Source: a virus
Direction: 5' to 3' (one strand)
IMG/VR virus record: IMGVR_UViG_3300042691_053485
Span: 96,001 to 160,000 of that record
Length of the DNA: 64,000 bases
The notes beneath the pieces are model-generated. The model made no database searches. It was not told where the DNA came from and saw only the letters and a program-made list of their open reading frames with translations. Shown here piece by piece: positions 22,425 to 26,031 of the stretch. The position numbers and the translations under genes are program-made. Position 1 is the stretch's first letter; each line of letters opens with the position of its first letter.

Positions 22425-23051
22425 ATGGCAGGTTCAAAACCAAACAATTTCCCTTTAAAAACCCCAATTGATGGGACAGAAGAAGTTTATACGCAAACTT
22501 CAAATGTTAATAATAAATTTACAGTGAATCAAATCGCAGAGTTCGTCGTGTCTCAAATCTCTGGCGATACGGATGCTATTTACACTGAAACTATAACACA
22601 AATATCATCTACGGAAATTAGCTTTCTTGGGTCGAATCCAGTCTCATCATCCCTTGTACTATCAGGTAATAATTTTTTAGAGGGACAATATGAAGTTATA
22701 TATCAAGCCGGAAATTTGGGATTTGATATTTTAAGTGGTGGTGCAAATCCAAACGGTATTATTCATTTAATTGCATATACTGCCAATACATTTTCGGGGA
22801 ATGCACTTTTAGATGGTTTTTTATTCATTGCCACTATGAGTTGTATGGCATTTACAGCTAAAGCAGTAGTTAACTCAAATATTGGAGTAAATCTTTTTGC
22901 ATCAAATGTAATATCTGATGTCGCAAGACATTTCCCAAATGGAACTGTAAAGTTCATCATGGTTGACGAAACATTTACACCGATTGATATTTTGGGTGGA
23001 AATGGGGAGTTAAAGGTAACATTGAAAACCCAAGTGAAGTCCTATAATTAG
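22425..23051 (+). CDS. Putative virion structural protein
   Basis: Beta-rich 208-aa ORF with own TATTTATA box; N-terminus resembles fibre-attachment segments. Confidence 0.5.
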   Translation: MAGSKPNNFPLKTPIDGTEEVYTQTSNVNNKFTVNQIAEFVVSQISGDTDAIYTETITQISSTEISFLGSNPVSSSLVLSGNNFLEGQYEVIYQAGNLGFDILSGGANPNGIIHLIAYTANTFSGNALLDGFLFIATMSCMAFTAKAVVNSNIGVNLFASNVISDVARHFPNGTVKFIMVDETFTPIDILGGNGELKVTLKTQVKSYN

Positions 23052-23073
23052 TGAATGAAACTTTGTAAACTTC

Positions 23074-23117
23074 AAAAGAGGCTTATCTATCTAAAGAAGA
23101 TGGATAAGCCTCTTTTT
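23074..23117. terminator. Bidirectional terminator between convergent genes
   Basis: 19-bp stem AAAAGAGGCTTATCTATCT / AGATGGATAAGCCTCTTTT (one T-G wobble), 5-nt loop. Confidence 0.85.
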
Positions 23118-23120
23118 ATG

Positions 23121-23143
23121 GCGGTTAGCAGATAGTTATATGC
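23121..23143 (+). repeat. Right half of an attC-like site (R' GTTATATGC at 23135-23143)
   Basis: GTTATATGCAATGCTACG parallels GTTACCTGCAAGTGCTACG at 24020; exact reverse complement of GCATATAAC at 23929. Confidence 0.6.
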
Positions 23144-23218
23144 AATGCTACGTTTGTGCTTCGTATTAAGTTTTATTATAATATTCTTTTTGTTTTATTT
23201 TTTTCCCACCACACAAAT

Positions 23219-23812
23219 TTAATTATCTTTAATTTCACCAGTTATAATAATTGAATTGGGATTTATAACAACAAATTCTTCTGTGTATCTATTTTCATCT
23301 ACCAAAATAATATCGTAACCTTTTGATTTCACTTCATTAGATAAATATGGGTCAGTCATACCACTACTCGAATTATATCTATAAATTTTAGCATTTGGTT
23401 TTATTTTAGCTGTGACTAAACGACCTTCTTTTGTTGAGTTTAACTGTTTACCGACATTCTGAAAATCTTTTAATTTTACAAATGTCAAATCATATAAATC
23501 TTTATGTTCTTGTGTTCCGTATTTACTATTTTTAAACTTTTTTTCAGTTTTTTCATATTCTTCATAAGCATCATTATATTCCTTATTTAATTTTTTAACC
23601 GCATCTATTCTATATTGATGTGCTTGTGATTTTGAACGTGTAAAATATATACCCTTACCCCAATCGGAATATTGAATCAAACCTGATTTTTCAATATCAA
23701 ATTCATCAAAATTGTTATTTGTTCCGTGATATAATGTTATATTTGTAAAATTATCAACTTGTTCATTAAAATATTCACGTATAGTAGTTGCTATGAATTT
23801 TCTTAGTTCCAT
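23219..23812 (-). CDS. ADP-ribosyltransferase-fold protein (H-Y-E type, ART-PolyVal-like)
   Basis: LYHGT...FDEF, GKGIYFT, A..Y, GYD and EEFVVINP motifs. Confidence 0.65.
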   Translation of the reverse strand: MELRKFIATTIREYFNEQVDNFTNITLYHGTNNNFDEFDIEKSGLIQYSDWGKGIYFTRSKSQAHQYRIDAVKKLNKEYNDAYEEYEKTEKKFKNSKYGTQEHKDLYDLTFVKLKDFQNVGKQLNSTKEGRLVTAKIKPNAKIYRYNSSSGMTDPYLSNEVKSKGYDIILVDENRYTEEFVVINPNSIIITGEIKDN

Positions 23813-23836
23813 ATTATTAAATAGTTTTATTCTATA

Positions 23837-23844
23837 TATAAATA
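23837..23844 (-). promoter_or_regulatory. TATTTATA box
   Basis: Plus-strand TATAAATA, 24 nt upstream of the minus-strand ATG at 23812. Confidence 0.55.
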
Positions 23845-23930
23845 TTCAAATTTTAAATTTCCATCCCACAAAAAATAAAACAAAAAGGCTCATCTCTCGT
23901 ATTAAAGTTTGTAGGTTAAATCCGCACAGC

Positions 23931-24026
23931 ATATAACAAGGTGTATAAGAAAGTTTGCTATAAAGTTATACGTATAATTTGAAAATTTGTTACAAGCAAA
24001 CCTTCTCATACACCCATCCGTTACCT
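23931..24026 (+). repeat. attC site 1 (96 bp)
   Basis: ATATAAC ... GTTACCT cores; 20-bp arms at 23940-23959 and 23995-24014 pair 18/20, and both mismatches become G-T wobbles on the bottom strand. Confidence 0.75.
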
Positions 24027-24871
24027 GCAAGTGCTACGATACTGCTACTATTGAACATTTGTGGGAGAAAATTTAAAAAGTTTTTCAGTCTTATTAACTT
24101 TCTGTTTTGGATTTGTTTTACTTATCTCTTTTTGCCAAATACACTCAAAATCACTTGGGGCGTTATATTCGCTAATAAAAACATTATGCCCTTCTTTGCT
24201 TTTTTTCCTACACCAATCCCAAAAAATGTCACTATTAAAATGTTCTTTATATCTTTTATTTTTTAATTGATATGGTGGGTCGCAATAAATAATACATCTA
24301 CCTTCTGTTTTAATATCCAAGTAATCAGAAAATATAAATGTAATATCGGATATATCTTGTTTTAAAAACCCTCTTATACCTTCATCAAAATAATTTCTAT
24401 AATTACCTCCTTTTGTTTCGCTTCCTCCACCATAGGCACTAAACCAATTACCATTATAAGAACCTAAAACACCTATCAAACCAACATACCATTTAGGGTA
24501 ATCGTTTTTATTAGCTTTTACATCTTGCCAATGTTCTTTTGTAATATCTCTATTGTCTATCAATCCACCATTTTGGATATAGTGATACAACTCTATTATG
24601 TATTCATTATTATCATAGCCTATTCTTTTACCATCAACTTTGTCAATAGTGTTTGCACCCCCAACAAAAGGTTCAACCCAAGTTTCTTCAGTCCTACCGT
24701 TTAACATTATAGGTAATATATATTTTGCTATTCTGTTTTTACTTCCTGTATATTTCATACTAAAACTTTTTAAATTTTCTATTCGTTTTCAAATCAAAAT
24801 CCTGCTAAATAAACCGCACCAGCAGGTAACACGTGCTATACGGCATTAAAACGACCGCATAGCACCATACG
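24021..24871 (+). mobile_element. Integron-type gene cassette 2 (DNA adenine methylase)
   Basis: Begins at G|TTACCTGC (24020) and ends in attC2 with R'' GCAGGTAAC (24822-24830), an exact complement. Confidence 0.7.
24048..24758 (-). CDS. D12-class N6-adenine DNA methyltransferase (Dam family)
   Basis: MKYTGSKNRIA, VEPFVGGA and YCDPPY motifs. Confidence 0.9.
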   Translation of the reverse strand: MKYTGSKNRIAKYILPIMLNGRTEETWVEPFVGGANTIDKVDGKRIGYDNNEYIIELYHYIQNGGLIDNRDITKEHWQDVKANKNDYPKWYVGLIGVLGSYNGNWFSAYGGGSETKGGNYRNYFDEGIRGFLKQDISDITFIFSDYLDIKTEGRCIIYCDPPYQLKNKRYKEHFNSDIFWDWCRKKSKEGHNVFISEYNAPSDFECIWQKEISKTNPKQKVNKTEKLFKFSPTNVQ

Positions 24872-24877
24872 TTATAT
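24824..24877 (+). repeat. attC site 2 (54 bp)
   Basis: AGGTAAC-AC-GTGCTATACGG-loop-CCGCATAGCAC-CATAC-GTTATAT; same 2-nt versus 5-nt spacer geometry as attC1. Confidence 0.75.
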
Positions 24878-24896
24878 GTAAGTGTTCCATAGTTTG

Positions 24897-24930
24897 AACT
24901 GCGTTTATCTGCGAACCGTTATAGGTAATG
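24897..24930 (+). repeat. Right half of an attC-like site (R' GTTATAG at 24918)
   Basis: ...TATCTGCGAACC-GTTATAGGTAATGC has the same CCGTTA end and AATGC flank; the left arm is missing. Confidence 0.55.
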
Positions 24931-25197
24931 CTAACTTTTATTTAAGTTGAGCCAAAGCGCGATAAATGTTTCGCGTTCCATTTGACACACTTCATTACCA
25001 TCAATATGTTTTCGATTTTCGAATATTTCCATCACTCCGCCCCCAGTAAAATACACCGAATATCGTTTCCAAGCACTATCGCCGTGAATTTTTCCAACTC
25101 TTTCAACCTTTCGTAAATCAATTATGTCCCCACAAATGTTCACAATTGGGTTTGATTTGTTCACTTCCTCAATGTTTTTTAATTTTTCAGCTTCCAT
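24931..25197 (-). CDS. Hypothetical protein (probable cassette cargo)
   Basis: 88-aa ORF whose stop abuts the attC half-site. Confidence 0.6.
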   Translation of the reverse strand: MEAEKLKNIEEVNKSNPIVNICGDIIDLRKVERVGKIHGDSAWKRYSVYFTGGGVMEIFENRKHIDGNEVCQMERETFIALWLNLNKS

Positions 25198-25310
25198 ATT
25201 TTTTCAATATTTTTTCATTTGAATTTATTCTCAAACTCCTTCTGCTCAGCTAACAATACCTTGTGTAACTTTAGAAGTTCATCAAACAATAAATTTGATA
25301 TCTCTTGTTT

Positions 25311-26031
25311 TTATAAATTGAATCCGTCGACATCAAAATTAATAAAGTATTTCTCACAACCATCCTCAGCCACTTCTTTTGTTAGAACAATGGGCTTAGA
25401 GTAGTTTTTTTTATCTGATAAAAAGTAACCTCGCTCATATTTATAAATTGTTTTGTCATCATGTGAATAATAACAGTCCTCAATAATAACAGTCCTCAAT
25501 AATAATAGATTCTGATTGGAATACTGTTCTGCCTTCCTTCCCAATAATAAATGGATAATCAAAATTTAAATCTTCAAAAGACCCAACTATCTCCCTGACG
25601 TATATTTTTTCCTGTCCATTATTAATAATCCAATATGGACAAACCATAACTTGATATTTTGCAGTTATGATTTCTTTATACAACTCAAGTTGTTGTGTAT
25701 TTAGTTTGACGTAAGGGTTAAACGTTTTTCGAGTTCGACTATCCCAATAAAGTCTGTTATCTTTTATTTCTTGAGATTGATAAACTTCAATACAACCGCT
25801 TTTATCGTACCAATGGTCTCCATATTTTCGGTCTCTGTATTCAATGACTGGAAGCCCTGACAACTTGAAATTGTCGTCAAGTCTTAAAATTTCAACTATT
25901 TGAGCTTCACTCAATGTATTTTTATAAAATGCTAACTCCACAATAATATGCTTAAAACTTATTAAAAAATCTTCCCATGTTTTCATGAGCTGTCCAGCAT
26001 TCTTCACAAACTCCATATAATGTTGAGCCAC
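25311..26031 (-). pseudogene. Hypothetical gene split by a 16-bp tandem duplication
   Basis: ORF 25480-26031 ends IIEDCYY* and ORF 25311-25562 contains IIEDCYYSHDDK; removing one repeat unit fuses them in frame. Confidence 0.8.
25466..25497. repeat. Perfect 2 x 16-bp tandem repeat AATAATAACAGTCCTC
   Basis: Read directly at 25466-25481 and 25482-25497. Confidence 0.95.

Follow-up and report, generated by a model that had tools for sequence, protein, structure and literature searches.

The window, a 64,000-nt stretch of viral DNA taken from a phage record of 184.5 kb that is 68% complete, carries two one-gene cassettes bounded by two hairpin sites, site 1 and site 2. A conserved platform precedes them on the left, and what may be a decayed array end follows on the right. 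The features are, in window coordinates:

23075–23138, no strand: conserved left platform of 64 nt, with a terminator-like bidirectional hairpin (23074–23116) followed by TATGGCGGTTAGCAGATA and GTTA
23074–23092 / 23098–23116: inverted repeat of the platform
23135–24019, minus strand: cassette A, comprising R′ GTTATATGC (23135–23143), the ART gene and a hairpin site of its own, ending one base short of the following GTTA
23186–23203 / 23870–23887, no strand: perfect 18-bp inner inverted repeat of cassette A
23219–23812, minus strand: cargo gene 1, ART-like, 197 aa (Pfam ART-PolyVal, E = 1.2e-9; DUF3990, E = 1.4e-9)
23929–24028, folding strand minus: site 1, long type (~88–90 nt), R″-AA-20-bp stem-35-nt loop-stem-CATCC-R′
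23929–23937: R″ of site 1, GCATATAAC, then spacer AA
23940–23959 / 23995–24014: 20-bp stem of site 1, with two A·C mismatches on the plus strand
24020–24028: R′ of site 1, GTTACCTGC, preceded by spacer CATCC
24020–24870, minus strand: cassette B, comprising R′ GTTACCTGC, a Dam-type methylase gene and its own hairpin site
24048–24758, minus strand: cargo gene 2, a D12-class N6-adenine DNA methyltransferase, 236 aa (Pfam PF02086, E = 6e-14)
24066–24084 / 24762–24780, no strand: perfect 19-bp inner inverted repeat of cassette B, its right arm 3 nt upstream of the ATG
24822–24879, folding strand minus: site 2, short type (48-nt core), with the family loop CATTAAAACGA
24822–24830: R″ of site 2, GCAGGTAAC, then spacer AC
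24833–24843 / 24855–24865: 11-bp stem of site 2, with one A·C mismatch on the plus strand
24871–24879: R′ of site 2, GTTATATGT, preceded by spacer CATAC
24871–24926, no strand: putative decayed right end, with a 47-nt cassette stub, a 3′ half-site (TATCTGC-GAACC) and the cassette-start-like GTTATAGGTAATGC at 24918

Both sites follow one build, TAAC-2 nt-stem-loop-stem-5 nt-GTTA (23929–24028 and 24822–24879), and the starts of their cores, at 23934 and 24827, are spaced 893 nt apart. The earlier note on this DNA had described two TAAC...GTTA hairpins with a shared 2/5-nt spacer, arm mismatches that are all A–C on the top strand, and an R′ at the start of each cassette that complements the R″ at its own end. 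All of this is present in the sequence as described, with the end complementarity amounting to 9 of 9 positions in both cassettes: GTTATATGC (23135–23143) is the exact complement of GCATATAAC (23929) in cassette A, as is GTTACCTGC (24020) of GCAGGTAAC (24822) in cassette B. Because every stem mismatch is A·C on the plus strand, the minus strand folds better, with energies of −14.0 versus −11.6 kcal/mol for site 1 and −9.5 versus −7.5 kcal/mol for site 2. Against a covariance model made from 68 sites, all from contigs other than that of the window, site 1 reached 84.5 bits (E = 2e-13) when read on the minus strand and 33.7 bits on the plus strand; the minus-strand score of site 2 was 31.5 bits (E = 0.002). 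No further significant match to the model occurs elsewhere in the 64 kb, a scan of the whole 184.5-kb record for sites returned site 1 and site 2 alone, and an Rfam scan of 22800–25300 at E up to 10 gave chance snoRNA-like matches only. Both stems, like the family consensus, are continuous helices devoid of extrahelical bases, and fixed G·U/G·T wobble pairs take the place of bulges.

That the hairpins could be a chance pair of palindromes, or the segment a chimeric assembly of bacterial DNA within a phage contig, is exceedingly improbable. Error-free Logan contigs from the runs of three studies span 23135, site 1 and 24871, so the junctions are not an assembly chimera, and the concern raised on this point in the earlier note can be laid to rest. 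Runs from freshwater samples contain this phage. The covariance E-value of 2e-13 and the presence of the same cassette inside a 634-kb phage and a 310-kb phage likewise stand against chance or chimerism, and no point in favour of either was found.

The cassette boundaries are also drawn by homology. Homology to the cassette ends of five other loci sets in exactly at 23135, and in more than 20 loci the homology stops at 24023; homologues of cassette B in two further loci (L154 and L171) end at 24874/24875. The huge phage LR745206.1 possesses a homologue of cassette B with near-identical ends of 66–70 nt and an ORF that is 76–79% identical, and the frame of cassette A recurs, around a different ORF body, as the second cassette in the array of a complete 310-kb phage. 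At the left junction, three metagenome contigs (L262, L265 and L264) keep 23075–23138 at 94% identity, with unrelated sequence on either side of the platform and other cassettes immediately after its GTTA. The cassette variation in other phages that had been proposed as a check was therefore found, at position 23138. The 64-nt platform acts as the insertion junction of the array and is attI-like in role.

The right end is less clearly defined. A direct repeat (23135–23155 / 24918–24938, 81%) and an inverted repeat (23117–23134 / 24906–24923) connect the two flanks of the array, and no full hairpin lies to the right of site 2; tentatively, judging from the sequence, 24871–24926 may be a decayed right end of the array. 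An exact search of viral contigs with the left and right boundary sequences gave no match (the left was later found in the metagenome contigs), and for the 208-aa neighbour viral contigs yielded no relative. Among 80 loci kept of 432 found via ribonucleotide reductase, the DnaB-RNR-DUF5522 arrangement was shared and the array-adjacent genes were present in none. By these two routes, then, no close relative that shares the flanking genes came to light, and the second provided no empty site for comparison. Nor was an excised circle, an excision joint or a deletion variant seen in the material searched, which comprised low-depth contigs and a raw-read run (X21) that gave two reads; this counts against the cassette movement proposed below. 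One contig, with 29 nt on its shorter side, skips 464 nt inside the methylase gene (24295 to 24760) and probably comes from another methylase homologue.

The cargo, a methylase and an ADP-ribosyltransferase, is typical accessory or anti-restriction equipment of phages. The methylase is 50% identical to that of Polaribacter phage P12002L, which is itself flanked by sites of the same build, while the ART-like protein possesses an N-terminal leader, MELRKFIATTIREYFNEQ, that is common to at least 15 other cassette ORFs. Both genes lie on the minus strand, antisense to the top strand as first noted, and the single ORF sits on the folding strand not only in both window cassettes but also in more than 90% of 273 family cassettes. 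Within each cassette, the ORF is enclosed by a perfect inner repeat; that of cassette B is also kept in LR745206.1, and an inner repeat of 14 bp or more is present in 30 of the 74 family cassettes compared, as opposed to 1 of 74 controls. These repeats have no role in an integron-type mechanism and count against the explanation favoured below. An invertible segment, which perfect repeats around each ORF might bring to mind, was set aside, as the arms differ between the cassettes and no invertase is nearby.

Beyond the window, the short-type pattern TAAC-N13-CATTAAAACGA-N16-GTTA was found in more than 120 viral contig stretches, a lower bound, and, across 185,579 genomes of prokaryotes, in 57 stretches, most of them on short MAG contigs with a Bacteroidota label. 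Matches in isolate genomes (Psychromonas, Gillisia and Thalassobellus) were discarded, being devoid of a true hairpin site and having the look of chance. Altogether, 363 unique sites were collected, falling into size classes of 48, ~79, ~88 and ~125 nt, and their internal stem mismatches read on the top strand as A·C in 174 cases versus G·T in 12. In an alignment of 68 sequences, compensatory changes support 17 of 25 pairs, one G·U pair is invariant (68/68), and TAAC and GTTA are invariant in all 68 as well as in both window sites. The end rule extends to the family: the 5 nt after GTTA and the 5 nt before the next TAAC are perfect complements in 175 of 308 neighbouring pairs, with a mean of 3.9 of 5 matches versus 1.8 within one site and 1.75 at random. 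Moreover, the hairpin cores are near-identical among unrelated contigs, and the cassettes are very small, with a median ORF of about 83 aa. The sites are a real and widespread element.

Clues to the agent of movement come from the neighbours of such arrays. A tyrosine recombinase of ~266 aa directly adjoins the array in a complete phage of 310 kb and at 16 viral loci; of all protein clusters in the loci retrieved, it is the one found most widely (19 loci, tied with an N4/N6 methylase). Its place is constant throughout the 16 viral loci: it neighbours the first site and is always encoded on the strand opposite to the one that is top for the sites. Most of these loci have an attI-like ...ATATAATnTA|GTTA ~45–70 nt upstream of the recombinase start, and the first cassette after this junction follows the end rule. 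The complete 310-kb phage, which has terminal repeats, carries the whole set of array, attI-like junction and recombinase. The catalytic residues R, K, HxxR, H and Y are invariant among 16 members that are 29–99% identical. The alignment of the enzyme with Pyrococcus XerA (4a8e; E = 6e-40) runs from one end to the other, and its best NCBIfam match is XerA_Arch, although it falls short of the family cut-offs for XerA, XerC and XerD (185 bits, with 220 required). In the region of the IntI-specific insertion it has 37 residues versus 85 in VchIntIA, about 48 fewer, and against the integron integrase model TIGR02249 it scores 150 bits, with a cut-off of 265. By its sequence, then, the array-linked recombinase is Xer-like and not IntI. 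An IS200/IS605 or other HUH nicking enzyme had also been considered and was set aside once the link to a tyrosine recombinase appeared.

The window itself lacks such an enzyme. The earlier note had reported no integrase in the window, and this extends to the whole 184.5-kb record, in which there is no PF00589 match, no intI gene with the IntI-specific insertion next to an attI, and no remnant of a recombinase detectable by tblastn or a family HMM with the array-linked recombinases; therefore, the array in the window is an orphan. Where the recombinase and its attI-like junction would stand, at the R″ end of the array, both are absent here, and the different 64-nt platform ending in GTTA is found instead. 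Such absence, which weighs against the explanation favoured below, is not peculiar to this phage: LR745206.1, at 634 kb and with a four-site array, has neither a recombinase gene nor a remnant, and among ten large site-bearing phages the gene is intact in three, fragmented in three and missing from four. The suggestion that a tyrosine recombinase moves the cassettes holds up insofar as one adjoins arrays in 16 viral loci and a complete phage, and on that account such an enzyme is the likely agent, as judged by sequence; the implied integron-type enzyme gives way to an Xer-like one.

One alternative is that the sites are classical integron attC sites, in a CALIN that was acquired from a bacterial integron and is served by the host’s IntI. 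The layout is attC-like, with AAC/GTT boxes, a bottom-strand fold and complementary cassette ends, and it is also that of a CALIN, in which two or more sites lie close together with no integrase nearby. Qi et al. 2023 (PMC9892861) called 17 CALINs in phages, including Polaribacter phage P12002L, and found that five of six tested phage attC sites recombined with IntI1. A phage-resident array of this kind is thus not the novelty that the earlier note had supposed. P12002L_attC1, however, is a short-type member of the very site family found in the window; it was predicted by HattCI only, and it alone of the six gave no verified IntI1 recombinants (PMC9892861). Further against an attC identity are the rarity of this site type in prokaryote genomes, the isolate matches without a true hairpin, the absence of extrahelical bases, the 2/5 spacer, the ORFs antisense to the usual arrangement in more than 90% of cassettes, and neighbouring recombinases that lack the IntI insertion and reach only 150 of the 265 bits set by TIGR02249. 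Classical attC sites served by IntI are accordingly a very doubtful explanation. The proposal of a CALIN-like array in a phage stands as to layout and end-matching, and falters on the missing extrahelical bases, the asymmetric 2/5 spacer and the result for P12002L_attC1; because the attC identity of the sites is in doubt, the array is a CALIN in layout only.

A second alternative would place the hairpins at the level of RNA, as terminators, processing sites or stabilisers in leftward transcripts, with the end pairing serving the mRNA and with shuffling, as has been proposed for PeSL cassettes, solely by homologous recombination between conserved hairpins. The strand that folds is also the sense strand for both genes, its wobbles reading as G·U in RNA, so an RNA-level role is possible; moreover, a second perfect helix joins the ORF ends in the 30 of 74 cassettes (1 of 74 controls) mentioned above, and hairpin cores that are near-identical across unrelated contigs would make homologous exchange possible. 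As a full account this is nonetheless unlikely, if less so than the attC explanation, since it leaves unexplained the dedicated recombinase in fixed position and orientation with an attI-like GTTA at 16 viral loci, the homology that breaks exactly at GTTA, and the single polarity of the wobbles (174 versus 5). An RNA role alongside recombination is possible.

Probably, the two cassettes of the window form an orphan array that belongs to an integron-like system of gene shuffling, native to Bacteroidota-type phages. Under this explanation, each site would work as folded single-stranded DNA of the minus strand, and the small Xer-like tyrosine recombinase, bound to the TAAC/GTTA box and the stem, would exchange strands in or adjacent to GTTA. 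A cassette would be excised as a circle with its two 9-bp ends paired, and the circle would re-insert at a GTTA junction, such as that at 23135–23138. Because no such enzyme is encoded in the record, the cassettes of the window would be leftovers of past insertions, or would be moved by a recombinase provided in trans from the unsequenced third of the genome, a co-infecting phage or the host. The sites, their strand bias, the end rule, the recombinase link in other genomes and the cassette variation at the left junction are observed; the single-stranded substrate, the exact position of the cut and the action of the linked recombinase on these sites are the parts of this scheme that we infer.

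Taken further, we are inclined to think that Bacteroidota-type phages own a cassette-capture system separate from the bacterial integron, in which the enzyme would be a small recombinase of Xer-like type, lacking the IntI insertion, and its substrates would be hairpin sites with wobble pairs instead of bulges; it would move self-expressed mini-cassettes. The latter encode methylases, ADP-ribosyltransferases and many unknown small proteins, and many of these products have in common an N-terminal leader of 18 residues (MxLRKFIxTTIREYLNEQ) that ends in LNE|Q and might direct entry into the capsid for injection. The array of the window would be an orphan of this system.

For the collection and reshuffling of genes by bacteria, the integron is the textbook device. 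If the interpretation is correct, virulent and jumbo phages would possess a parallel device run by a simpler, Xer-type enzyme, which would bear on the fast trade among phages in anti-restriction and other counter-defence genes, on a possible origin of integron integrases from Xer recombinases, and on what a recombinase requires for strand choice in a folded site without bulged bases. The cassettes also amount to a collection of small, functionally uncharacterised phage proteins that are already sorted into portable, self-contained units and suited to anti-defence screens. The window by itself makes a more modest point, namely that phage genomes without a recombinase of their own retain such arrays, whose variation falls at a precise GTTA junction.

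Among known systems, the enzyme is closest to the Xer recombinases, since it aligns with XerA over its full length; it differs in being phage-borne and in lying beside cassette arrays rather than a dif site. XerC and XerD act with dif, and the CTX phage, one of the elements that exploit Xer enzymes, has a folded single strand as its substrate for integration. If the single-strand reading is right, the likeness would extend to an Xer-type enzyme working on a folded hairpin. A different kind of precedent is offered by the PeSL (promoter-early stem-loop) mobile cassettes of T4-type phages, whose exchange has been attributed to homologous recombination, with repeated promoters and stem-loops as the regions of identity. 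Here, too, small accessory phage genes in hyperplastic regions are bounded by repeated stem-loops and exchanged as units. We know of no dedicated recombinase, AAC/GTT boxes or end-matching rule for PeSL cassettes, whereas all three are features of the phage hairpin-cassette family.

The most extensive comparison is with integrons and CALINs. As in these, single-gene cassettes are arrayed between imperfect palindromes that bear AAC/GTT boxes, folding favours the bottom strand, each cassette has a start complementary to its own end, and DNA methylases are frequent cargo; complete phage versions, like integrons, have a divergent tyrosine recombinase and an attI-like junction at one end. In classical attC sites, extrahelical bases in the folded stem set the choice of strand, whereas the phage sites have none and show fixed G·T wobbles and an asymmetric 2/5-nt spacer instead. 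The phage cassettes are very small, many with an extra inner inverted repeat, and their genes, encoded by the folding strand, are directed towards the recombinase, which is of ~266 aa, Xer-like and without the IntI-specific insertion. No paper on this recombinase-linked system was found in the literature searched. Finally, sites of the phage type, although common among viral contigs, are seldom met in the genomes of prokaryotes, and the one family member tested yielded no verified recombinants with IntI1.

The window covers bases 96001–160000 of a viral record that is 184.5 kb long, with completeness put at 68%. The array lies between a rightward gene block, encoding a DnaB-like helicase, a ribonucleotide reductase, DUF5522 and a 208-aa ORF to its left, and a leftward block. 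It holds two leftward ORFs, arranged as follows:

23135–24019: cassette A, ending in site 1
23219–23812, minus strand: ADP-ribosyltransferase-like (ART) protein
23186–23203 and 23870–23887: inner inverted repeat of cassette A, 18 bp, perfect, bracketing the ART ORF
23929–24028: site 1, long type
24020–24870: cassette B, ending in site 2
24048–24758, minus strand: D12 adenine methylase
24066–24084 and 24762–24780: inner inverted repeat of cassette B, 19 bp, perfect, bracketing the methylase ORF
24822–24879: site 2, short type

As the earlier note had described, a site of the build R''-2 nt-stem-loop-stem-5 nt-R' (R'' and R' being the outer boxes) follows each ORF in plus-strand order, the stem mismatches of both sites are all A.C on the plus strand, and the cassette ends match, with GTTATATGC (23135) being the perfect complement of the R'' at 23929 and GTTACCTGC (24020) that of the R'' at 24822. 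Because all three mismatches have this polarity, both sites fold better on the minus strand. A whole-record scan found only these two sites. The inner repeats, about 40 nt inward of the cassette ends, are two of only seven inverted-repeat pairs passing the filter in 64 kb. Inverted copies of the 13-mer TATCTGC[T/G]AACCG were also observed at both array ends (23123–23135, as reverse complement, and 24906–24918), each abutting a GTTA or TAAC; they could represent a pair of 3' half-sites or be left over from an inversion. Separately, AATAATAACAGTCCTC occurs two times in direct succession (25466–25497), as a perfect tandem repeat of 16 bp, inside a leftward coding region (25311–26031), which is broken into two ORFs at that point.

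Hairpins of this build form a family, and a viral one. The pattern TAAC-N13-CATTAAAACGA-N16-GTTA matched at least 120 viral contig stretches, versus only 57 stretches in prokaryotes (185,579 species, one genome each), mostly short MAG contigs labelled Bacteroidota; no match in an isolate genome was a real hairpin. The fetched loci contain 481 sites (363 unique), which fall into classes 48, ~79, ~88 and ~125 nt long, with internal stem mismatches that are A(left).C(right) in 174 cases, G.T in 12 and C.A in 5. Alignment of 68 long-type sites on the folding strand revealed compensatory changes in 17 of 25 pairs and one G.U pair invariant in 68/68. For site 1, a covariance model built from these sites, window excluded, gave 84.5 bits on the minus strand (E 2e-13) versus 33.7 on the plus strand; for site 2 it gave 31.5 bits. 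The 634-kb phage LR745206.1 has an array of four sites that includes the methylase cassette of the window, near-identical over 66–70 nt at each end with an ORF only 76–79% identical; the loop CATTAAAACGA is conserved, but the hairpin stems are different. Four loci (L032, L086, L019 and L114; e.g., L086 at ~1128–1156) contain 29-nt "empty cassettes", in which a GTTAnnnnn box and its complement nnnnnTAAC have nothing between them but the family loop; the end helix alone folds into a hairpin, with a loop identical to that of short sites.

Alignments to the cassette ends of five other loci all begin at 23135, more than 20 alignments to other loci stop at 24023, and homologues of the entire methylase cassette run as far as 24874/24875. 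The stretch 23075–23138, comprising a terminator-like hairpin, GGCGGTTAGCAGATA and GTTA, is kept at 94% identity in three metagenome contigs (two sequence types), with unrelated sequence on both flanks and other cassettes, starting GTTAGTAGC... and GTTATGCTC..., directly after the GTTA. Cassette variation, which the earlier note had proposed looking for at the junctions, is present at GTTA 23135–23138, and this comparison of contigs supports recombination there. Chimeric assembly was ruled out by error-free contigs, from the runs of three studies, that span the junctions; no excision product was seen in these contigs, a rare one being beyond the reach of such data. Cassette A's frame, made up of the two ends, the leader codons and the hairpin, is also that of the second cassette in the array of a complete 310-kb phage, around a different ORF body. 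More broadly, frames, including the promoter region, are 78–88% identical between contigs with unrelated ORF bodies (window 23135–23230 and 23749–24023; the 310-kb phage, L266, 10137–11016; L027, L047, L059, L107 and L138), and it looks as if gene bodies were swapped inside a standing frame.

In integrons, matched cassette ends are read as the trace of circularization and re-insertion at G|TT. Among 308 neighbouring site pairs of the family, 175 show perfect complementarity between the five variable nucleotides after GTTA and the five that precede the next TAAC (mean over all pairs, 3.9 of 5), whereas the two flanks of a single site match no better than random (1.8 vs 1.75), so it is the two ends flanking a gene that belong together, not those flanking a hairpin. 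ORFs occupy the folding strand in more than 90% of 273 cassettes, the opposite of the layout in bacteria, which the earlier note had seen for the window.

When all ORFs of 90 aa or more from the fetched loci were clustered, a ~266-aa tyrosine recombinase (Phage_integrase and SAM_5 domains) came out as the most widespread cluster, in 19 loci, tied with an N4/N6 methylase. In 16 viral loci it adjoins the first site and is invariably encoded on the strand opposite the sites' top strand; a conserved ...ATATAATnTA|GTTA lies ~45–70 nt upstream of its start in most of them, and ...CTAACCCCnC|GTTA lies upstream in three. The cassette beginning at this GTTA follows the end rule, and the 310-kb phage, complete with terminal repeats, possesses the recombinase and the junction together with five or more sites. 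Across 16 members (29–99% identical), the catalytic R, K, HxxR, H and Y do not vary. The best matches are XerA-type (NCBIfam XerA_Arch, 185 bits, under the cut-off of 220), with an end-to-end alignment to PDB 4a8e (E 6e-40). The alignment to VchIntIA breaks at the integron-integrase-specific insertion (37 residues vs 85), and the TIGR02249 score of 150 bits lies below that model's cut-off of 265.

The locus is best explained as an orphan array of an integron-like system operated by this Xer-like recombinase. The substrate would be the folded minus strand, the cut would fall between G and TT, and the acting enzyme would be the array-linked recombinase and not one from the host. The hairpins may have a role at the RNA level, since the strand that folds doubles as the sense strand. 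Such a role might account for the inner repeats, which at 14 bp or more occur in 30/74 family cassettes versus 1/74 controls, adjoining the 9-bp end helix or ~40 nt inward, and for which mRNA end pairing and folded-circle stabilization are possibilities; alone, however, it leaves the recombinase, the junction and the exact breakpoints unexplained.

Orphan arrays are common, since only three of ten large site-bearing phages keep an intact recombinase; three have fragments (G002:C1:13309-14732, G003:C1:15098-15433 and G009:C1:54613-54795) and four have none. One of the three fragments carries stop codons. Pfam matching, tblastn and a family HMM found no recombinase in the window's 184.5-kb record, and an array-linked one was not found in LR745206.1. 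The recombinase seems to decay repeatedly while arrays persist.

The 162 cassette ORFs found are 47–372 aa long (median ~83 aa). Pfam matches are few among 147 of them and are led by DNA methylases of several classes, with single matches including Lar restriction alleviation, MazG-like and PAPS reductase. Residues 1–18 of the ART protein, MELRKFIATTIREYFNEQ (23759–23812, minus strand), recur at the N-terminus of 15 or more cassette ORFs, unrelated in other respects, on other contigs (L131, L138, L008, L027, L047, L055, L160, L017, L034, L078, L016, L011 and L107). Capsid-targeting leaders of T4 internal proteins are cut after L/I-x-E, and because this motif ends LNE|Q, the leader-bearing proteins may, by analogy, be packaged and injected.

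The earlier note's observation is confirmed and the outline of its interpretation stands; what it says on enzyme class, attC identity and precedent has to be corrected. A literature search, without most subscription journals, returned no account of the site family, its Xer-like recombinase or the reversed gene direction. The earlier note took a phage-resident array to be notable; 17 CALINs (attC clusters without an integrase) have been published from phages, and IntI1 recombined five of six phage attC sites tested (Qi et al. 2023, PMC9892861). The sole tested site without verified recombinants, P12002L_attC1, was predicted by HattCI only (PMC9892861). Its sequence in the primer table of that study, located here in the phage genome, reads TAAC-AA-stem-CATTAAAACGA-stem-TAGCC-GTTA, and the same phage encodes a methylase 50% identical to that of the window, with sites of the family build flanking the gene. 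Since P12002L_attC1 shares the short-type build of site 2, single members of the family have already been published as phage attC sites.
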